Shown here: in pieces, positions 1,546 through 61,353 of the stretch | Position numbering within the stretch: the first letter of the stretch is position 1 | How the letters are laid out: each line of letters opens with the position of its first letter | IMG/VR virus record: IMGVR_UViG_3300022723_000184 | Span: 128,001 to 192,000 of that record | Strand: one strand, 5' to 3' | Source of the DNA: a virus | Lineage: Duplodnaviria > Caudoviricetes | DNA: 64,000 bases | Program-made: the position numbers and the translations under genes | The notes under the pieces: model-generated | The model's database searches: none | The model's input: only the letters and a program-made list of their open reading frames with translations | Told to the model about the DNA's origin: nothing

Positions 1546-1615
1546 AGCTGTCTCGCCTTGTCTTGCCTTTAAGTCGGCGAGCTGCATTGTCCGTATTCTA
1601 CTCAGGTGAGTCTAG

Positions 1616-5568: not shown

Positions 5569-5829
5569 ATGAAGAAAATCATCGAAACAGACGAATCGGA
5601 AGGGCTTGAATCTCTACTCGGCGAGCAAGTCACGCTGTGGTGCGAGTGCTACATCTACGCCGGCAAGTTGATCGGCGTGAACACGCACGATGTGAAGCTC
5701 GCCGACGCAAAGATCGTCTACGAAACCGGTTCGCTCAACGAAGCCGGATTCAAGAATGCTCAGTCGCTCCCTGGCGAATCGTGGTATGTGCGCATCCCTA
5801 AAATCGAATCCTATGGGGTCATGAAATGA
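5569..5829 (+). CDS. hypothetical phage protein
   Basis: RBS AAGGA; motif TLWCECYIYAGKLIGVN...IVYETG. Confidence 0.7.
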   Translation: MKKIIETDESEGLESLLGEQVTLWCECYIYAGKLIGVNTHDVKLADAKIVYETGSLNEAGFKNAQSLPGESWYVRIPKIESYGVMK

Positions 5830-6020
5830 GCCTTGGCGCTGGCGGCAGAATGTCGTGGTCGCGGTCGCGGTCGTGGTCGCGGTCGTGGTCGTGGTCGTGG
5901 TCGCGGTCGTGGTCGGGGTCGCGGTCGTGGTCGCGGTCGTGCTCGGGGTCGCGGTCGTGGTCGCGGTCGTGGTCGCGGTCGTGGTCGTGGTCGCGGTCGG
6001 GGAGCGACAACAACCGATAG
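5826..6020 (+). CDS. Arg/Ser/Trp-rich low-complexity peptide
   Basis: ATGA overlap with upstream gene; encoded by the hexamer repeat. Confidence 0.5.
   Translation: MSLGAGGRMSWSRSRSWSRSWSWSWSRSWSGSRSWSRSCSGSRSWSRSWSRSWSWSRSGSDNNR
5852..6001. repeat. tandem hexamer repeat (GGTCGT/GGTCGC), about 25 units
   Basis: directly visible. Confidence 0.97.
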
Positions 6021-6890: not shown

Positions 6891-7148
6891 ATGGCGAGCC
6901 GTGCTGAAGTGCAGATACAGTGGGCGGAGAAGGCGGCTGACATCTTGCTCGACCGAAGGATCGTGGAGATCCGCTACATGTCCGACTTCCACATGGCCCA
7001 GGAGATGTGGAGCGGACCCGCCCCGATCATCCTCGTCCTCGACGACGGGACCAAGATCTACCCGGCACGGGACCCTGAGGGCAACGGCCCGGGGGCGTTG
7101 TTCGGCGTGAAGAGGGACGGCGAGGACTTCTGCGTCCCGCCGGTCTGA
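6891..7148 (+). CDS. hypothetical protein
   Basis: ORF with LDDGT and DPEGNGPGALF motifs. Confidence 0.65.
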   Translation: MASRAEVQIQWAEKAADILLDRRIVEIRYMSDFHMAQEMWSGPAPIILVLDDGTKIYPARDPEGNGPGALFGVKRDGEDFCVPPV

Positions 7149-7160
7149 TAGGAGAGACAC

Positions 7161-8048
7161 TTGGCCAAACGCAAGTTCACGATGCACGAGCAGATGATCT
7201 TCGACGTAATCCGCAAACAGGCGGGCACGCTGTCGAAGGCGGCGTTGGAAGGCGTGATGAACGCCGTCGACGCCAACGCCTCCGAGATCAAGATCACGCT
7301 CGACGAGGGCAGGATGACCCTGTCCGACGACGGTAAGGGGTTCCGGTCCAAGAAGGAGATCGAAGACTACTTCGAGACCTTCGGCCGACCTCACACAGAG
7401 CAAGAGCAGAAGGTCTTCGGCAAGTTCCGTATGGGTCGCGGGCAGATGTTCGCGTTCGGCAGGAACCTGTGGGAGACCGGACGATTCCGGATGGACGTCG
7501 ACGTCAAGGACAAGGGCCTGGATTACGACCTGAAGGAGCTGTCCGAGAAGGAGCGGGCGCCCGGTTGCTCGATCACGATCGAGCTGTACGACCAGTTGCT
7601 GCCGAGTGACGTCGACAAGACGGTCAGGGACCTGGAGCTGTGGTGCAAGTGGGCGCCGCTCCGTGTGGTGCTCAATGACCGGGAGATCAGTTCGGATCCC
7701 GCTGCCCAGGAGTGGCAGTACGAGACGGACGAGGCCTACGTCAGTCTGACGGGTGTCGGCGGTCTGACGATCTACAACCAGGGCGTGTTCGTCATGGACA
7801 TTCCGGCCTACCGGTACGGGACGGGCGGCGAGGTCGTGACCAAGATGGGTCAGGATCTTGACGTCAACTTCGCCCGCAACGACATCCTGGCTTCGTGCCC
7901 GATCTGGAAGAAGGTCTCGCCCTTCATCGACCAGCGGGCCACGGAGAAGAACACCAAGAAGCGGGCCCTGGACGACGGCGCCCGCCAGAGGCTGGCCCAC
8001 CAGTTGAAGGCCGGCGAAGAGATCGAGTCTCATCTTCTAAACCGATGA
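7161..8048 (+). pseudogene. GHKL (HATPase_c/MORC-like) ATPase, 3' end replaced by an inverted CRISPR repeat
   Basis: EGVMNAVDA, DDGKGF, GKFRMGRGQ boxes; terminal residues SHLLNR and the stop codon come from the repeat at 8027-8062. Confidence 0.7.
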
Positions 8049-8062
8049 GCAGGTATTAAGAT
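8027..8062 (-). CRISPR. solitary CRISPR repeat, 35/36 identical to the array consensus
   Basis: minus strand reads ATCTTAATACCTGCTCATCGGTTTAGAAGATGAGAC. Confidence 0.95.
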
Positions 8063-8080
8063 CCTCGGTATTGTAGTCTA
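8063..8080 (-). promoter_or_regulatory. leader-like element with -10 box (TACAAT) upstream of the solitary repeat
   Basis: TAGACTACAATACCGAGG vs array leader TAGGTTATAATGCCGCGG (13/18), same 7-nt spacing to the repeat. Confidence 0.7.
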
Positions 8081-8139
8081 GCAAGAAGGACTTCGTGTTC
8101 GACTGGATCAAGAACATCATGCTCATTTAGGAGGTTGTT

Positions 8140-8406
8140 TTGAAAACCATTTGGAAATTCCCGCTCGAAATCGTCGACCAGCAAGAGGTCGAGATGCCTG
8201 CCGAAGCAGGCGGCATTCACGTGGAGATGCAGAACAACCAGCTGTGTTTGTGGTCGATGGTAGATCCCGAGGCGCCCAAGGTGTCCGTCAAGATCCGTGT
8301 CGTTGGTACTGGGCACCCTATCCCGGACGCCGACAAGCTGACGCACTTGGGCTCGTGCCTGATGGCCGGCGGTGCCCTCGTGTGGCATGTGTTCAAGAAG
8401 GACTAG
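8140..8406 (+). CDS. hypothetical phage protein
   Basis: TTG start after AGGAGG; IWKFPL..VVGTGHP pattern. Confidence 0.75.
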   Translation: MKTIWKFPLEIVDQQEVEMPAEAGGIHVEMQNNQLCLWSMVDPEAPKVSVKIRVVGTGHPIPDADKLTHLGSCLMAGGALVWHVFKKD

Positions 8407-9074
8407 AAGGGGTCGGATACGCGGCCTAACCAGTTTACCACCGTCGGGCCGAGGTGGTAGGCGGCGGTCTGCTCCATGTAGACCACGCGATCGCGTTCGG
8501 CCCACTGCTTCGCAAATTGGATGTCGCAGGTCTCGGCGGTCTGAAACCGTTCGGGGTACGGCTTCCGTTGCGAGGTGTGGTAGAGCTGGAAGTAGCCTCG
8601 GACCAGGCCGTGCTCGAAGGCGGCTGAGTCCGGGGGGATGTACGCCAGGCGGGTGTGATACGGGATGAACGGGTCGGCCTGCTTGATCGCATAGCGAGAG
8701 GGTACGACGAACCTTGGCGCCCCGTACAGCTTAGTAGGGTCAGGGACGACCCGGTGCAGTTGGTCGATCGTCTTCTCGGGGATCACGATGTCCGCGTCCA
8801 GGTGTAGTATCCAACCAGGGGACGCATCGAAGATGCCAGCGCACCGGCTTAGCAGGTGCGACAGTGCCTTGCCCTTGTTGAACGGTGCACCGCCCTCGTA
8901 GAAGGCGTCGGTGCGGACAAGAGAAAAGCCCAGGTCCTTGCAGACCTGGGCCGTGTGTTCGTCTTGGTTGTCGGTCACGACGACGACCCTGGGGGTCAGC
9001 CGCTTCCAGGACAGGCCGGCGATCTCCAGGGTGTCGGCGTAGTTGACGCTGACACTGACGATCGTCGGCTGCAT
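8403..9074 (-). CDS. glycosyltransferase (GT-A fold)
   Basis: FNKGKAL and LHLDADI (DxD) motifs; ATG at 9074 coupled to upstream stop. Confidence 0.75.
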   Translation of the reverse strand: MQPTIVSVSVNYADTLEIAGLSWKRLTPRVVVVTDNQDEHTAQVCKDLGFSLVRTDAFYEGGAPFNKGKALSHLLSRCAGIFDASPGWILHLDADIVIPEKTIDQLHRVVPDPTKLYGAPRFVVPSRYAIKQADPFIPYHTRLAYIPPDSAAFEHGLVRGYFQLYHTSQRKPYPERFQTAETCDIQFAKQWAERDRVVYMEQTAAYHLGPTVVNWLGRVSDPF

Positions 9075-10243: not shown

Positions 10244-11906
10244 GGCTAAGGCACCTCGTAGTCTGAACATCCATGTTCCCTGGGCCGAGGTCGCCGAGGC
10301 TCTGGAGTTGCCCCTGAAGAGCCAGACACTCCCCGCTACGACCAGATGCCCATTGTGCGGCGGACGCCGCTTACGTATCTATCAGGATAGCACAAGCGGG
10401 GGGTCATGGCACTACTGCGGTGATTGTAAATCCCGCGGTGACATGATAACACTGGCCGGTTCCGTGTGGAAAACGGACGTCTACGAGACGCTCGACAGGC
10501 TGAGAGATGCTGGCATCGATCTGCCCGATACGCAGTTAGGGTCGCCCCAGGTCGTCAGTTACGCCGATCGACAGAAGCGACAGGCCACGATCAGCGAACT
10601 TTGGAAGCTGGCGCAGCGTCAATTGTGTGCCGGCCGGATGGGGGGAGTCGCTGACCTGCAGCGGAAGTACTATCTTCGGTTCAAAGGCGACCGTGAGCGG
10701 GTGGAGGACGGGCCGGCCAAGCTATACGGGGCCCTGACCGTCAAGCAGGCGGAGCGGGCGTTGTACAGCCCGGGGTCGTTGAACAAGTACGGGCGGACGA
10801 AGAACGCGCACCTCGCCTTCAAGGGCCGCAACTGGGGCGATGTCCTGGTCATGCCGTTCTACGACATGCCCCAGCGGATCTGTGCCCTCAGCTTTATGGG
10901 GCGCCGCGGCAATCCGAAGACCGACCAGGTGTTTTACACGACGCACACCAGCGCGATCGAGGCGGGCCTCGGCGGGCTGCCCTCGATCGAACTGGCTCAT
11001 GACCCGGACACGGTGATTGCCGTAGACGACTGGCTGTTCTACTTGCGGGCCCAGATCCGCCACTTCCGCAGCTCGTACATCCCGATGCCCATGGTCGTAT
11101 GGCGGGACGAGGGCAAGATCAGGACCCAGCGGGCGTGGAACGCGGTCAGTGACAAGAACATCGTGTTCTGGGGGTTTAACTTGGACGCCCGGATGATCCG
11201 GCACGCGATGGAGACCGACGGCATGATCTCGCTGCTCGGGCCCAAGGAGTTTGTCGACGACCAATCGGTCGGCCACTTCCTGCGGGACCACCGGGGCACC
11301 GACCTGCCCCGCGACGTCATCCGGGCCGCGAGGCCGTGGCGCAAGGCTCTGGCCCACTGGCTCTCGTGCAATAGGCCGGAGCACGGCCACAATCTGTTCA
11401 AGGCCCTCGAAGAGCTGGGCGAGGACGTCAGCCACATCCTGAACCAGATCGGCAAGGGCCCGACGACGATCGCCCGACCGGTCATGCGGAGGTCGGCCGA
11501 GGTCGGCCCCTACACGATCTCCGAGCGAGGCGGGTGCTGGTACCACGACAGGTACAGGACCCGGCCCGAGCTGATCATGGATGCGGTTCTCAGGGTGACC
11601 CATGCGATCAACGACCTGCGGTCGGGTGACCTATGGTACCGCGGGTTCATCGAGTACCGCGGGCAGCGGATCTATTTTCTGGAGCCGGCCAAGACCATGG
11701 AGGGCCGGACCCTGTTCTGGATCCGGGACAAGGTCAGCGCCGCGGGTCTCGGGCTGCTGCGGTACAGCTCGATCTGGTCACGGGGTGGGAGGCACAATCT
11801 GTACCAGGTGGCCGTGACCTTCGACGAACCGCGGTTTGTGAATGAAGACCTGGCCTTGCACGTGCAGGAGATGCGTGAAGCCGGGCACCTGATCGATCCG
11901 ATCTAG
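10242..11906 (+). CDS. protein with N-terminal primase-type zinc-binding domain
   Basis: CPLC...HYCGDCKSRGDMI motif; no clear TOPRIM motif seen. Confidence 0.55.
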   Translation: MAKAPRSLNIHVPWAEVAEALELPLKSQTLPATTRCPLCGGRRLRIYQDSTSGGSWHYCGDCKSRGDMITLAGSVWKTDVYETLDRLRDAGIDLPDTQLGSPQVVSYADRQKRQATISELWKLAQRQLCAGRMGGVADLQRKYYLRFKGDRERVEDGPAKLYGALTVKQAERALYSPGSLNKYGRTKNAHLAFKGRNWGDVLVMPFYDMPQRICALSFMGRRGNPKTDQVFYTTHTSAIEAGLGGLPSIELAHDPDTVIAVDDWLFYLRAQIRHFRSSYIPMPMVVWRDEGKIRTQRAWNAVSDKNIVFWGFNLDARMIRHAMETDGMISLLGPKEFVDDQSVGHFLRDHRGTDLPRDVIRAARPWRKALAHWLSCNRPEHGHNLFKALEELGEDVSHILNQIGKGPTTIARPVMRRSAEVGPYTISERGGCWYHDRYRTRPELIMDAVLRVTHAINDLRSGDLWYRGFIEYRGQRIYFLEPAKTMEGRTLFWIRDKVSAAGLGLLRYSSIWSRGGRHNLYQVAVTFDEPRFVNEDLALHVQEMREAGHLIDPI

Positions 11907-14860
11907 TCGAGATCCCAGTTCGGGTTCTCGGGATTCAACGCATCCATGATCGCACGGTCGATGCCGATGTTTTCGATCTCGGCAAGGTTCGGCCAGTTGC
12001 CAGTCGCCTGGTACAGTGTGATCAGGCCGAGGTTGGTGGCCTGGGCGAAGTCGTCGGACAGCGCAGGATCCCGGATGATCGTGTAGATGTCCTTACCCAG
12101 GCGGCTGTCGACCTTCTCCTCGACCAGGGCCAGGAACTCCCGGATGAGGCCGGGGTTCTCGGCGTCCTTGTAATCGTCTTGAAAGAACCGGAGCCAGCCG
12201 GTCTTGATCTGTTGGCAGGTGAGCTGCAGGGACCGGGGCTTGTCGACCAGGTAGTAGTCGCGGGGGTGGCGGTCCGTCCGGGGCTTGGGAACGATGATGC
12301 CGCCGACGGCCGCACGCTGCAGCTGGCAGGCGATGATCCGGTTGTAGGGGAAGCCGGCCTGATTGATGAACGTCTCCCGCAAGGAGCCGGCACCCGTGTA
12401 GTCGTGAGCCATCAGGTGACACTTGAACCGGGTGAGAAGGGCAATGGCCAGCCGGGCTTCCCGGGCATGGTCGTGGGGCGTCAGCGAACGCAGGGCGTAC
12501 AGGCAGTCCACCCGACCATCGGGCATCATGCCGAGGACCGAGTAGGTCGTGAAACTGATGCCCTGTTCGCCGCCGCCGCCCCAGTCCACGCCCAAACAGC
12601 GGAGGGTGTACTCGCCGATCTGTTTCTGGGCCTCTTCGACCTCGTTCTTCCACGGAAGGCACGCGGCCTTCATCAGGTCGGTGAGCGTCACGAGCTTCGA
12701 GCCGGTGTCGTAGCTCTCGCCGCAGACCTCGTTGTAGAACACATGGATCGGGGTGTTGCCCCGGCCCTCACGCTTGCCGAGAAGGACGTCCCACTTCTCG
12801 GCGTTGCCGTAGTGCATCGGCATGATGATCTGCGGCACGTGGTACCCGGCGAACGTCCAACGCTTTTCCGGGTGGGCATGAACCCAACGGCCGTGCAGCT
12901 TCGGGTGGATGGGCCTCCGGCACTTGGCGCAGATTACGGCCGGATTGTTGAAGGAGATGTCGTCACGCAACGGGCCGATCATCTTGTCGAGATCGTGGGT
13001 CATCGCCGGTACGTTATGGTAATTGCAGCGGTGACATTTGATGACCCATTCGGCCATCGAACTGTCTCGCCAAAGAGTTTCGATCGTGTTTTCGAGGGTC
13101 TTTGGAGTGCCCGCAAACGACTCGATGCCTCCGTACTTCGATCCGGACATCGTTTCCCGGATGATCGGGATGAAGTCTTTGTCGAGGTCCTGCACTTCGT
13201 CATAACAATTATGTGTCAGCACACCTTCAGCGAAGAAGCAGTGTTCTCGTTGCGTGTTGATGTCCCAAACCGGTTTGAGGTCAAGACGTTTTACGTGGAC
13301 TACGTGTACAAACGATGTCTCACTTTTCGACACTCTGGCCCGCAGACGGGATTCGATGCCGCAATCTGATGCTGCTTCGCTTCTATCGTTTTCCCGCACA
13401 TCGAACAGGCAATTTCGGGGCGAGGTTTCGCGAGCTTGTAAGACATCATCTTCGGGACGAACGCGGATACGTTTTCGGACAGTTTCCTGGAGTCCGCGGC
13501 CGGCAGGTAAACTAAGTGATAGAGCTTTCCTGTACGAGAGTTTATGGACGGGTGACGTTTGGCCGACAACAATTCTCGTCGCTGTAGGTCGGACGCGATG
13601 AGGTCCACTTCCCTTTCGGTGAACCCTTGCGTGTTGAAGTGGATAGTACTTCTTTGTCGTGCCCCGTCGTCCATGAGCTAGTAAGCGATTCCTCGCCAGT
13701 CGAGTCGTTCTAGCCAATCCTGACTGACGCGTTTCTTTCCTTCCGGACAGGTCAGCGCATACAGCGGAGCCAGCTCCACGGCGCTTACGGTGTTGAACAC
13801 GCAAGATACTTTGCCCCAGCCTTTGTTTTCTTTCACTCTTGGTGGTGTGGACACGTACTCGCCTAAGACTGCTGCCTTGTGTCGGCAGTACGCTTCTCGA
13901 GACCCGCCGTGGCGGAAGCATACCCGCGGGTTTGCTGTGTTGCTCGATTTTGACAGGCAAGCATCCCCGAGCAAACAGCCGAGTAGAAGTTGTTCTTGCT
14001 CGCAGGTCAACGGAGGCACCTTCTTCGGTTTTCTCCCCGGGCGAGAAAAGGGTCGACAAGCGGATCCATTCGCCCTCGGCGGTTTTGAACCGAGAGTCTT
14101 TTGTACACCTAAGGACCGAGCCATTGGAAAACCGGACTTCGTAGATCTGCTGGACGCCTTGGAAGATTTTTTCGGTAACGACATCGTCGACAACCTTTCC
14201 GTCGTTGTTGACGGCCGGCACGATGTCCCCAGTTCTGGCTTCGTCGATCCGGATACCGCCGCGGTTCCTGGTTTCGATTATTGTATCGCCTACGAAGCAG
14301 TTCTGGTCAGCGGAAATACCACGAGTACGTTCGGCGTCGAGGAACGCGAACGAGAAGATCATCTGGCTGTTGTTGCGGAAGGTACGTTGCAGCACAGAGC
14401 CAATCGTGTTCGTGCCGGTGAACACGTTGACCACGGGCGACTGCTCGATGAACGGTCGGATGTAGTTCTGGCTGAATCGCCGGATCATTTCAAACAAGGG
14501 CGTGACGTACAGCGTCGAGAAGTACGGCAGGCAGTTCGACTGCACGACGCCGCGACTTGCCAGGCTCGTCGACTTGGAGACTTGACGGCCTGTTTTGAGC
14601 AGCGACTTGCGGGCCATGCGAGTCCGGAAGAACGGCTCGAACGGGAAGTAGTTGTCGAGGCTGTACGGTTCGCCCTTGAGGTTGAGTAGCAGCGGGAGCA
14701 GGGGTTTCAAGGACGCCACCCTGCTTTTGCGCATGAGGTGGGCGGCCACCGTAAGTCGGCGGGTGTTGGCGTCCTCGAACCCCGATAGTTTTAGGCCGTC
14801 AAGGATCTTGGGCGAGACGTCGAGGCCCATTTCCTTGATGACGTCGGAGACAACTGACAT
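11903..14860 (-). CDS. terL: terminase large subunit with intein
   Basis: Walker A LKTGRQVSKS, Walker B split as ADQN|CYDEVQD, nuclease motif GVDWGGG, C-terminal DDFAQA. Confidence 0.88.
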   Translation of the reverse strand: MSVVSDVIKEMGLDVSPKILDGLKLSGFEDANTRRLTVAAHLMRKSRVASLKPLLPLLLNLKGEPYSLDNYFPFEPFFRTRMARKSLLKTGRQVSKSTSLASRGVVQSNCLPYFSTLYVTPLFEMIRRFSQNYIRPFIEQSPVVNVFTGTNTIGSVLQRTFRNNSQMIFSFAFLDAERTRGISADQNCFVGDTIIETRNRGGIRIDEARTGDIVPAVNNDGKVVDDVVTEKIFQGVQQIYEVRFSNGSVLRCTKDSRFKTAEGEWIRLSTLFSPGEKTEEGASVDLRARTTSTRLFARGCLPVKIEQHSKPAGMLPPRRVSRSVLPTQGSSLRRVRVHTTKSERKQRLGQSILRVQHRKRRGAGSAVCADLSGRKETRQSGLARTTRLARNRLLAHGRRGTTKKYYPLQHARVHRKGSGPHRVRPTATRIVVGQTSPVHKLSYRKALSLSLPAGRGLQETVRKRIRVRPEDDVLQARETSPRNCLFDVRENDRSEAASDCGIESRLRARVSKSETSFVHVVHVKRLDLKPVWDINTQREHCFFAEGVLTHNCYDEVQDLDKDFIPIIRETMSGSKYGGIESFAGTPKTLENTIETLWRDSSMAEWVIKCHRCNYHNVPAMTHDLDKMIGPLRDDISFNNPAVICAKCRRPIHPKLHGRWVHAHPEKRWTFAGYHVPQIIMPMHYGNAEKWDVLLGKREGRGNTPIHVFYNEVCGESYDTGSKLVTLTDLMKAACLPWKNEVEEAQKQIGEYTLRCLGVDWGGGGEQGISFTTYSVLGMMPDGRVDCLYALRSLTPHDHAREARLAIALLTRFKCHLMAHDYTGAGSLRETFINQAGFPYNRIIACQLQRAAVGGIIVPKPRTDRHPRDYYLVDKPRSLQLTCQQIKTGWLRFFQDDYKDAENPGLIREFLALVEEKVDSRLGKDIYTIIRDPALSDDFAQATNLGLITLYQATGNWPNLAEIENIGIDRAIMDALNPENPNWDLD
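13208..14299 (-). mobile_element. intein (364 aa) in terminase
   Basis: starts CFVGDT, ends VWDI...FAEGVLTHN followed by Cys+1. Confidence 0.9.
13300..14040 (-). pseudogene. LAGLIDADG homing endonuclease, out of frame with the intein and carrying a nonsense codon
   Basis: LLGCLLGDA motif, then GIAY*LMDDG (TAG at 13678-13680), then a CxxC zinc ribbon; start approximate. Confidence 0.75.
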
Positions 14861-15889: not shown

Positions 15890-16098
15890 TCTGACGACGC
15901 CCTCGTGGCGTAGAGCAACGCGGTAAGGGGCCAGGGTTTCCGGGCCCCCTCTCTGCAGGCGGGAAAAAGCGTAAGCGGGGCGAGGCTGGCCCACAGCCGT
16001 TTGAGTCCTGGAGTGGCCACACCACTGGTCCTGGCAAGCCTGCCGTCGGATTTTTCTTTTGGTCGCCTTCATGGGCCTCCGTGCCCGTGGGCCGATCT

Positions 16099-21539: not shown

Positions 21540-21575
21540 TCGCCAACAGGCTGCTCATCGACAAGAGGATGAGAC
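21540..21575 (+). CRISPR. degenerate solitary repeat upstream of cas12m
   Basis: CTGCTCATCG-(7 nt)-GATGAGAC vs repeat CTGCTCATCG-(8 nt)-GATGAGAC; 6-bp stem intact; ends 20 nt before the ATG. Confidence 0.7.
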
Positions 21576-23489: not shown

Positions 23490-23495
23490 TATAAT
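23490..23495 (+). promoter_or_regulatory. -10 box of the array leader
   Basis: perfect TATAAT 7 nt before repeat 1; no consensus -35. Confidence 0.6.
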
Positions 23496-23502
23496 GCCGC
23501 GG

Positions 23503-24247
23503 ATCGTAATACCTGCTCATCGGTTTAGAAGATGAGACGCGGCATTGATTGCCTTCTTGAGTTGCTGCTCCAACATCGTAATACCTGCTCATCGGTTTAG
23601 AAGATGAGACATCGCCGCATCGCTGGAAGCGGGCGTGGCGTCGGCGGATCGTAATACCTGCTCATCGGTTTAGAAGATGAGACCTTTCTCTGTGTCCGAG
23701 ATAACGGGGTCACTAATGTCATCGTAATACCTGCTCATCGGTTTGGAAGATGAGACAAGCATCCGAGCAGCCGCTACAAGGACAAGATCGGCATCGTAAT
23801 ACCTGCTCATCGGTTTAGAAGATGAGACTAGTCGGGCAATTGCTCGAACGGCACAGAGATATCGTCATCGTAATACCTGCTCATCGGTTTAGAAGATGAG
23901 ACGCTTACCGGTGGCCGAGGCCAAGGCGCGATGGAGAACATCGTAATACCTGCTCATCGGTTTAGAAGATGAGACACGGTGGATCCGGTCGAGCGGCTGA
24001 TCCTTCACATCATCGTAATACCTGCTCATCGGTTTAGAAGATGAGACCCGGTGATCGACGCGGTCCTCGAGAACGCCGAGGACATCGTAATACCTGCTCA
24101 TCGGTTTAGAAGATGAGACAAGTGGATCAGGTTCTTCTCATCGTAATACCTGCTCATTGGTTTAGAAGATGAGACGCGGACTGCCCCGAGATGCGGCGCC
24201 GGCTGTGGGTAATCGTAATACCTGCTCATCGGTTTGGAAGATGAGAC
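23503..24247 (+). CRISPR. CRISPR array, 11 x 36-bp repeats and 10 spacers (36-38 nt, one of 20 nt)
   Basis: repeat ATCGTAATACCTGCTCATCGGTTTAGAAGATGAGAC with CTCATC/GATGAG stem; single-base variants in repeats 4, 10 and 11. Confidence 0.99.
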
Positions 24248-35568: not shown

Positions 35569-35697
35569 CGTGCGGTGGTGGCCTTGGTGTGGTCTCGCCC
35601 TGTAGGTTGGCGAGCTGGCATTGTTAATGCCCAAGACCTGTGGTGGTCTTCACATCTTAGCGCCAGCCACCCACCAACGCAAGGAAAGTGGTGCGGC

Positions 35698-46581: not shown

Positions 46582-46617
46582 GTCGTAATGTCCGCTCACC
46601 GGCTTGGAAGATGAGAC
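46582..46617 (+). CRISPR. solitary degenerate CRISPR repeat upstream of the recA-like gene
   Basis: GTCGTAATGTCCGCTCACCGGCTTGGAAGATGAGAC, 30/36 to repeats 4 and 11; 11 nt before ATG 46629. Confidence 0.88.
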
Positions 46618-61113: not shown

Positions 61114-61353
61114 CGGCTCAAAACGCGTCAAAATACATGCAGGCAACTTAGCCTGCTCAATCAGGACCCCGGAAGGCTCCGTCGGGCATTTCTGCTCGGC
61201 GGGGTCTTTTTCTTTTCACATCCATGGAACAGACCCAGTACCAGATGAGCCGACCTTCGGGTCACCTGAGACGGGACCGGTCTGTTCCCTGGATCTGAAC
61301 CACGTGGCGGCCGGAGCCGCCGAAACAAGACACCTCTCAAGTAGGAGAACGTC

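Follow-up and report, generated by a model that had tools for sequence, protein, structure and literature searches.

Can a single repeat of the CRISPR type, standing outside any array, serve as a gene for one guide RNA? The question is raised by a 54-bp element, here called the cassette, at positions 8027-8080 of a 64,000-nucleotide stretch of phage DNA (the window), which comprises bases 128,001-192,000 of the Caudoviricetes record IMGVR_UViG_3300022723_000184 in IMG/VR. The record is a linear, metagenome-assembled sequence of 201,946 bp with 62.5% GC, and it is estimated to be ~90% complete. Coordinates refer to the window, and positions in the whole record are marked as genome positions. 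The cassette consists of a leader-like stretch and one CRISPR repeat, and it lies where the back half of a GHKL ATPase gene used to be. An earlier, sequence-only reading (the original prediction) had proposed either that the cassette yields a CRISPR RNA (crRNA) aimed at intact copies of this gene in related phages, or that Cas1-Cas2 joined a DNA end at a leader-repeat junction. The explanation that we favor, at a little less than an even chance, is that 8027-8080 is a stand-alone single-guide gene of the phage's own Cas12m protein, aimed at cassette-free versions of the GHKL gene in competing relatives and leaving its carrier exempt.

A leader-like stretch and one repeat adjoin a truncated gene

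Read on the minus strand, the cassette begins with TAGACTACAATACCGAGG (8080-8063), which is identical at 13 of 18 positions to the leader of the phage's CRISPR array, TAGGTTATAATGCCGCGG. In both places, a TAnnnT hexamer (TACAAT in the cassette, TATAAT at 23490-23495 in the array leader) is followed by exactly 7 nt and then by the repeat. On the plus strand, 8027-8062 reads as the array repeat in reverse complement, altered at a single position (G4>T) relative to the repeats at 23503-24247, and a covariance model scores it at 54.1 bits (E 4.5e-12). The 3' 23 nt of the repeat occur 13 times in the window and in none of 100 shuffles. The leader resemblance, the equal spacing of the -10 box, and the 35/36 repeat had all been described earlier, and they hold base by base. 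The nearest other repeat-like match is 764 nt away, at 8826-8862 (covariance model search, E<=5), and the same kind of search found nothing repeat-like on the minus strand of 7,000-8,026. There is thus one repeat only, and the cassette is not a virus-borne mini-CRISPR array.

Beyond the repeat, the minus strand continues as the antisense of the GHKL ATPase gene, also as first described. The open reading frame (ORF) at 7161-8048 on the plus strand has 295 codons, and the GHKL/Bergerat ATPase signature (HATPase_c_3, E 6e-9) lies within its first ~105 residues. Codon 289 is composed of G8025 and A8026 from the gene and G8027 from the repeat, so that the ORF enters the repeat in frame and takes its stop codon (TGA 8046-8048) from it.

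An HMMER search of 1.84 billion representative proteins yielded 1,271 relatives of the GHKL ORF. The best 150 of these are almost all 540-680 residues long, and their residues ~4-285 are matched by residues 3-287 of the query. When aligned together, the homologues show a conserved LITAVTGRH ~10 residues past the junction and go on for ~270 further residues. When five full-length homologues were compared with the 202-kb genome by tblastn, the N-terminal half alone was matched, and the C-terminal half was absent. Judged by these alignments, the gene is truncated and not naturally short, in answer to the earlier question whether homologous proteins extend beyond ~290 residues. The remaining 288 codons still read as an open frame, with codon usage like that of a gene.

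On the other side of the cassette lies the 3'-end remnant of a gene (8080-8130), in which 15 of the 16 codons end in G or C, as in real genes of the phage. This remnant has no significant match to GHKL C-termini or to the genes upstream of DUF7352 in 15 other phages. A resemblance to the C-terminal end of the nearest GHKL homologue was set aside as not significant; the pattern that revealed it had itself been taken from that homologue. Because two gene fragments in different frames flank the cassette, its site is a deletion or replacement junction and no simple insertion. PADLOC does not list the GHKL family among known defence proteins, and Rfam has no family match in the window.

Table 1. 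Positions of the cassette, its surroundings, the CRISPR locus, and the solo repeats (window coordinates unless marked as genome positions)
Feature	Position	Strand	Remarks
5' half of phage GHKL ATPase gene, 288 codons	7161..8026	+	HATPase_c_3; homologues 550-680 aa; ends at repeat edge
Predicted 20-nt guide (17-18 nt if trimmed as by PmCas12m)	8007..8026	-	Antisense to GHKL codons 282-288; placed by the Cas12m crRNA layout (36-nt scaffold + 20-nt guide, PMC10442227)
Solitary Cas12m repeat, predicted crRNA scaffold, 36 nt	8027..8062	-	35/36 to array repeat; 3' hairpin CTCATC/GATGAG, AC tail
Repeat-derived ORF tail	8027..8048	+	SHLLNR + TGA stop 8046-8048
Leader-like stretch	8063..8080	-	TACAAT -10 box at 8075-8070, then 7-nt ACCGAGG to repeat; 13/18 to array leader
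3'-end remnant of a gene, 16 codons + TAG 8128-8130	8080..8130	+	Frame +1 relative to GHKL ORF; TAG overlaps ribosome-binding site of next gene
DUF7352 gene, intact	8140..8406	+	PF24043, E 6e-30
cas12m, 589 aa	21596..23365	+	PDB 23vw "DNA-binding protein Cas12m" E 5.9e-67; Cas12m2 (8hhl) E 1.5e-26; TNB domain PF07282 E 3e-13
Cognate CRISPR array, 11 repeats + 10 spacers	23503..24247	+	36-nt repeats; leader -10 TATAAT 23490-23495
Solo repeats, E<1e-5	genome 5222, 7620, 46773, 53583, 105824, 124139, 136027 (cassette under study), 163592	-	
Solo repeats, E<1e-5	genome 72751, 125944, 149540, 174582	+	
Weaker candidates	genome 67857(+), 100873(+), 101887(+), 124039(-), 129550(-), 136826(+)		

The phage encodes a Cas12m effector and a matching array

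A cas12m gene is located 13.5 kb from the cassette in the same phage. Its product aligns to Cas12m structures over the full length (query residues 14-578 for 23vw), and its RuvC positions are D (in GVDLG), E (in IGIED), and D (in DQDYNAAKN), the D-E-D arrangement also found in 23vw. The array begins 137 nt after cas12m and is transcribed in the effector's direction, and its repeat has a 6-bp stem, a 9-nt loop, and an AC tail. The locus has features by which type V-M is recognized: a full-length Cas12m with RuvC and a zinc-ribbon TNB domain, an adjacent array of ~36-nt repeats, and no adaptation module. By these alignments, the effector is a type V-M Cas12m, a DNA-binding family. Cas1 (PF01867) has no match in the 202-kb record, and 7 of 14 control genomes did match.

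The spacers of the array resemble fragments of coding DNA rich in G and C at third codon positions, in both orientations (from a reading of the printed frames). Comparison of spacer peptides with the phage's own genome gave only noise. The 23-nt core of the array repeat has no exact copy in IMG/VR, in JGI metagenomes, or in 185,579 GTDB species genomes.

The biochemistry of related proteins bears on what one repeat could do. Cas12m2 uses all 36 repeat nucleotides as scaffold together with a 20-nt guide, recognizes a TTN protospacer-adjacent motif (PAM), and silences through binding (PMC10442227). Six other Cas12m proteins bind without cutting, favor PAMs rich in T or C, and work without a trans-activating crRNA (tracrRNA) (PMC11013384). 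Precursor crRNA is cut by PmCas12m at repeat nucleotide 3 and guide nucleotides 17-18, and the PAM of this protein is YTN (bioRxiv 10.64898/2026.03.26.714355). Because these relatives use the full 36-nt scaffold and trim the guide themselves, a guide gene with a single repeat is mechanically plausible.

The cassette is one of many solo repeats in the genome

Solo repeats were sought across the genome with a mismatch-tolerant scan, a stem-aware scan, and a covariance model built from 13 copies. The covariance model search detected 12 solo repeats with E<1e-5 and ~6 weaker candidates, for up to 18 in total. By sequence resemblance, 8027-8080 belongs to this genome-wide cassette family, which the original prediction had missed. 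The solo copies diverge from the array repeat by up to ~25%, mostly through AT-to-GC transitions, and they retain full length, the AC tail, and a paired stem. Stem variants include CTCATC/GATGAG, CATATC/GATATG, CTCGCC/GGCGAG, and CGCACC/GGTGYG. Of the six stem pairs, four have changes on both sides, and pairing holds in 98.6% of cells; this covariation figure is partly circular because two variants came from a script that demanded the stem. Eight of the 10 promoter-bearing units have TAnnnT 3-7 nt before the repeat (TATACT four times, TACACT, TATAAT, TACAAT), despite diverged bases in between.

The copies occupy two kinds of sites. Nine antisense copies reside in short gaps after plus-strand genes, and seven sense copies stop 11-24 nt short of a start codon, that of cas12m among them. 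Three plus-strand ORFs enter an antisense repeat in the identical frame and end in SHLxxR followed by a stop (SHLLNR for GHKL, SHLPSR and SHLMGR for the others). These other two ORFs, of 368 and 2,248 codons, run into the solo repeats at genome 46773 and 53583, respectively. Only the cassette at 8027 is shown to cut a gene in mid-domain; six other copies are situated at gene ends or just past them. Because intergenic gaps are almost filled by the cassettes, it is largely a matter of geometry that "guides" point into genes, and we give this tendency no weight.

The closest relative of the cassette is another minus-strand copy at genome 124139-124174, which lies 3,861 bases before the window and 11.85 kb left of the cassette. 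A second minus-strand repeat to the left had been named as something to look for, and this copy answers to that description. It shares G4>T and is identical to the cassette over 46 nt (10 leader bases and the repeat), and it has its own -10 box (TATAAT, then ACCGAGG). The leader part of the cassette is identical over CTAYAATACCGAGG to the copy at genome 124175-124190. By their similarity, the cassette and this sister copy are the youngest members of the family, and the copying event appears to be very recent. The 11.85 kb between the two copies has a GC content of 0.617, compared with 0.608-0.621 in the surroundings, and carries genes that are ordinary for a phage (an AAA ATPase, an RNase H-like protein, a destabilase-like lysozyme).

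Beside the sister copy, a 29-nt element at genome 124108-124136 recurs with 28/29 identity at window 61125-61153, there without a cassette. Both 29-nt elements are found between the stop codon and the intrinsic terminator of unrelated plus-strand genes. Comparison of the two sites presents the sister cassette as a clean addition of ~52 nt. Window 61125-61153 was also considered as a target of the sister guide and was rejected, as it has GAG, which is not T/C-rich, at the PAM position and a mismatch in the seed.

Several other copies in the window have distinctive settings. A diverged solo repeat at 1550-1593 (minus strand, genome 129550) has an 18-nt loop, the compensated stem CTCGCC/GGCGAG, and TAGAAT just upstream; it is located 4 nt past the stop of a small plus-strand ORF and immediately upstream of the AAA-ATPase gene at 1616, to which it is divergent in orientation. 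The cas12m leader contains a partial repeat at 21540-21575 (plus strand, genome 149540) whose stem, CTG, and AC tail are intact and whose loop is different. It is followed by A10-GGAATAGCGC and then ATG, and the would-be guide is cas12m's own ribosome-binding region. At 46582-46617 (plus strand, genome 174582), a 30/36 repeat copy follows a terminator and ends 11 nt before ATG 46629, the likely start of a gene for a UvsX/RecA-like recombinase; the ORF as listed has its first ATG (46611) inside the repeat. The solo repeat at 35592-35627 (minus strand, genome 163592; 41 bits) has the stem CTCGCC/GGCGAG, stands between two plus-strand genes, and has no clear -10 box.

The match at 8826-8862 (plus strand, genome 136826) is probably not a cassette, even though it scores 28.5 bits with the stem CGCACC/GGTGCG, an unexpectedly high value. 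It lies inside a minus-strand glycosyltransferase-like gene, and it is not counted because the complementary strand codes for ...ALSHLLSRCAG..., which belongs to a conserved portion of the GT-A fold immediately ahead of the DxD motif.

A palindromic AT-rich motif, AAAAAGTACTTTTT, is found directly before ribosome-binding sites at window positions 16095, 26166, 30492, 48716, and 57322 (plus strand). It also precedes some solo repeats (genome 46808, 53618, 125944), and a similar motif is present in a distant Cas12m phage contig. The motif looks like a phage-specific promoter or operator.

Search for a target and a PAM

At the resident locus, the repeat ends in GAC where the PAM should be. Because GAC is not a T/C-rich Cas12m PAM, the resident GHKL locus should be exempt from its own guide. 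Within the phage genome, the guide has only chance-level partial matches, none with a T-rich PAM, and no second full match.

The original prediction held that, with a TTN PAM, intact homologues should read NAA immediately 3' of position 8026. The nearest homologue, with 60% amino acid identity and carried on a 2.9-kb soil-metagenome contig, has GA-C-AA at the aligned junction. It thus reads C-A-A (TTG on the guide strand) as expected, but it has many mismatches to the guide, and NAA has a chance of 1 in 16.

Exact matches to a 21-nt target were found at 17 places (16 in GTDB, 1 in IMG/VR) and were rejected as chance. All are in unrelated genes (EF-Tu-like, membrane-permease-like, and others; none GHKL), where they encode K-A-G-E-E-I-E/D with common codons. 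Because the matches fell in such genes, short matches in GC-rich genomes need a homology check.

A proposed stand-alone guide gene for Cas12m

How could such a gene work? The -10 box, copied from the array leader, would start an RNA at about the first base of the 36-nt repeat. Because the start falls there, the transcript would begin with a finished Cas12m scaffold. The next 17-20 nt, antisense to GHKL codons 282-288, would become the guide once trimmed by Cas12m or by host nucleases, and the RNA would be loaded into Cas12m. The junction itself would be the deletion or replacement that removed ~270 GHKL codons. The only DNA that the complex should recognize is the uninterrupted gene segment beside a presumed T/C-rich PAM, as carried by cassette-free relatives that co-infect the same host. 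Cas12m would bind this DNA as a roadblock and would not cut it. The support for a one-repeat guide gene is architectural, and the architecture makes such a gene plausible.

Several results weigh against this explanation. No target was found in any collection searched; there is no close relative of the GHKL gene in IMG/VR or JGI metagenomes, and the match among cultured phages is just 31%, to an Acinetobacter phage. The exact 21-nt matches described above all lie in unrelated genes. No protospacer from which to read the PAM of the phage's Cas12m was found for the array spacers (the whole array against INPHARED phages, two spacers against IMG/VR). A generic two-hexamer sigma-70 scan calls no promoter at the cassette, which has no recognizable -35 box, so that the case for a promoter is made by the -10 box and by leader homology. 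In the fold preferred by the free 56-nt RNA, the guide is paired to the 3' arm of the repeat's stem; the canonical hairpin is retained in the array unit and in the sister copy. The covariation figure carries the circularity noted above. Finally, because the event is very recent, as judged from the 46 nt shared with the sister copy, selection has had no time to show itself. The crRNA reading of the original prediction fits all testable points (the truncation, a Cas12m effector, the sufficiency of one repeat, and a GAC that is not a PAM), but the target that it calls for was not found.

In a broader version of the stand-alone guide explanation, which we consider quite unlikely, the cassettes would form an allele-marking exclusion system. 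Flanking sequence would provide the guide for cassette-free sites, and Cas12m would block the replication or expression of competitors at a dozen loci, with marked loci exempt. Through its sense copies in mRNA leaders, the system would also control genes of the phage itself, and the GHKL junction would be a fresh marker.

Alternative explanations

The strongest alternative, unlikely in our judgment but a genuine contender, is that the cassette is a neutral or mildly harmful by-product. A family member would have been copied by illegitimate recombination or template switching and landed with a deletion, killing the GHKL gene, and any RNA made from it would have neither target nor function. The cassette's youth (35/36 to the array, 46 nt identical to the genome 124139 copy) agrees with this explanation, as does its standing as the sole family member shown to cut a gene in mid-domain, with six others at or just past gene ends. 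A deletion junction also predicts flanks that are gene fragments in different frames. The missing target and the competition between guide and scaffold stem in the free RNA fit as well. However, the older members keep the promoter box, the full-length scaffold, and the paired stem despite ~20% divergence, which argues that this type of cassette is under selection and expressed. The persistence of the 288-codon remnant as an open frame with gene-like codon usage also speaks against a mere by-product.

A regulatory role in cis or through dosage seems improbable. The cassette might produce an antisense RNA across the GHKL remnant, and its transcript would be fully complementary to the 3' end of the GHKL mRNA, but control of a truncated gene seems pointless. 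Alternatively, its scaffold might soak up Cas12m, either in the manner of an RNA anti-CRISPR decoy or within a phage regulon in which Cas12m binds repeat handles on phage RNAs. The seven sense members that end 11-24 nt before start codons, including that of cas12m, point to RNA-level control, and viral solitary repeats downstream of promoters do act as RNA anti-CRISPRs (PMC10651486). The cassette is antisense and in no mRNA leader, however, and it fits this role less well than do the sense copies. A decoy against the host would have no visible client, because the matching effector is the phage's own and the 185,579 species genomes revealed no host array with this repeat.

An assembly artefact, in which a mis-join through the shared 46 nt (or the array repeat) conceals an intact GHKL gene in the real genome, is very improbable. 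The contig is linear, metagenome-assembled, and ~90% complete, with two identical 46-nt stretches, and the unassembled 10% could hold the half of the gene that is missing. But a mis-join through the 46 nt would swap only the promoter-side flanks, whereas the gene-repeat junction is beside unique sequence within one read length, and two further ORFs terminate in solo repeats just as the GHKL ORF does.

The second reading of the original prediction, an aberrant Cas1-Cas2 integration that would make the 11.85 kb between the two minus-strand repeats with G4>T a formal giant spacer, is hardly credible, because integration duplicates the repeat and not the leader and yet the sister copy has its own leader, so that two bracketing repeats with a leader on one only are not what is found; moreover, the genome has no Cas1 that could serve as integrase, the interval is ordinary in composition and genes, and at least 10 further solo copies in both orientations need another origin.

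Comparison with known systems

Viral solitary repeat units were reportedly described by Faure et al. in 2019. By the definition used for such units (SRUFinder/Faure), the cassette repeat is a full-length match to a bona fide CRISPR repeat and has no other full or partial repeat within 100 bp. It departs from the definition in that it is not a unit in an intergenic region, downstream of a promoter and apart from cas genes: a promoter-like -10 box is present, but the last seven codons of the ORF overlap the repeat, and cas12m and the array are 13.5 kb away. Viruses are known to carry solitary repeats downstream of promoters, some of which are RNA anti-CRISPRs (Camara-Wilpert et al. 2023, PMC10651486). 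The described units are "not associated with cas genes," and most of them match the system of the host, whereas here the effector and array are in the same phage. Here, too, there are at least 12 copies, no host array with the repeat was found, and the copy under study adjoins a truncated gene instead of lying in a clean intergenic region. An RNA anti-CRISPR repeat mimics that of the host's system, and the exact 23-nt core was found in neither the species genomes nor the JGI metagenomes.

Virus-borne mini-CRISPR arrays serve conflicts between viruses, and competitor exclusion is their proposed role (PMC6858448, Medvedeva et al. 2019). The cassette would resemble them in that the virus carries guides that would strike close relatives and not itself. 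However, mini-arrays have a repeat-spacer-repeat structure, acquired spacers that match known relatives, and host Cas proteins, whereas the cassette has one repeat, flanking resident DNA as its guide, and a phage effector. A match between spacer and related viruses, by which mini-arrays are recognized, is lacking, as no related GHKL allele was found in IMG/VR or metagenomes.

With the type V-M systems of Cas12m2, GoCas12m, MsCas12m, and PmCas12m, the phage locus shares full-length homology of the effector, a 36-nt repeat with a 3' hairpin, the absence of adaptation genes, and no sign of a tracrRNA partner. It differs in its RuvC triad, which is D-E-D as in 23vw, compared with HDD or NDD in the best-studied members. 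The published accounts of type V-M consulted here (PMC10442227, PMC11013384, bioRxiv 10.64898/2026.03.26.714355) do not include dispersed solo repeats that have promoters of their own. The published 197-kb phage Rctr197k (KX853510.1) encodes a Cas12m homologue (33%) and a 22-repeat array. It has a solo repeat at KX853510.1 175442-175466 (minus strand), 63 kb from the array and 23 nt upstream of a tRNA-Met gene, and a more degenerate copy ~130 nt further upstream in the same tRNA cluster. Because Rctr197k has such a repeat too, dispersed solo repeats are not unique to the genome studied here. The contig with the closest Cas12m (46% identity, 87 kb, 38% GC) has an array and no solo repeat within the 21.7 kb examined.

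RNAs that resemble crRNAs and act as regulators, namely CreA of CreTA, the crlRNAs, and scaRNA/tracr-L, are known from the CRISPR loci of cells (bioRxiv 10.1101/2024.12.27.630466). Such RNAs were reportedly also treated by Shmakov et al. in 2023. In these systems, degenerate solo repeats give rise to RNAs that load the effector, which then binds without cleavage. Their guides match a promoter elsewhere in the genome with partial complementarity, whereas the guide of the cassette has no second genomic site.

A parallel in logic involves TnpB, the ancestor of Cas12. The scaffold lies inside the mobile element and flanking DNA provides the guide, so that the element-free site is recognized and the occupied site is not. 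The TnpB omega-RNA of IS200/IS605 was reportedly characterized by Karvelis in 2021, Altae-Tran in 2021, and Meers in 2023. Its use of the flank as guide equals that proposed for the cassette, and an allele-marking system would be this logic reinvented with CRISPR repeats and a binding-only effector. Unlike IS200/IS605, the cassette has no transposase, element ends, or target-site motif, and a 36-nt CRISPR repeat serves as its scaffold. Since Cas12m relatives bind and do not cut, no homing by break repair is to be expected.

Other features of the window

A long run of 12-nt tandem repeats (GTCGTGGTCGCG-like) at 5828-6019 encodes Asp-His/Arg-Asp dipeptide repeats on the minus strand. A 985-residue ORF at 11903-14860 (minus strand) has weak matches to the terminase large-subunit ATPase and to intein/Hint domains, and it may be an intein-interrupted terminase gene.

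Implications

More than 2,000 viral solitary CRISPR repeats have been catalogued, and their single demonstrated function is that of an RNA anti-CRISPR against the host. The presence of an effector, a normal array, and at least 12 solo repeats in one phage allows a direct test of whether one repeat makes a working guide. The possible purposes of fixed guides can also be tested here, be they the exclusion of relatives, self-regulation, or none at all. Of these repeats, the one at the GHKL junction offers the cleanest case, because it involves the youngest copy, a complete scaffold, a leader-like promoter, and a guide of known origin. If single-repeat units prove functional with Cas12m, these 54-bp cassettes would be the smallest natural guide-expression units for a compact protein of CRISPR interference.

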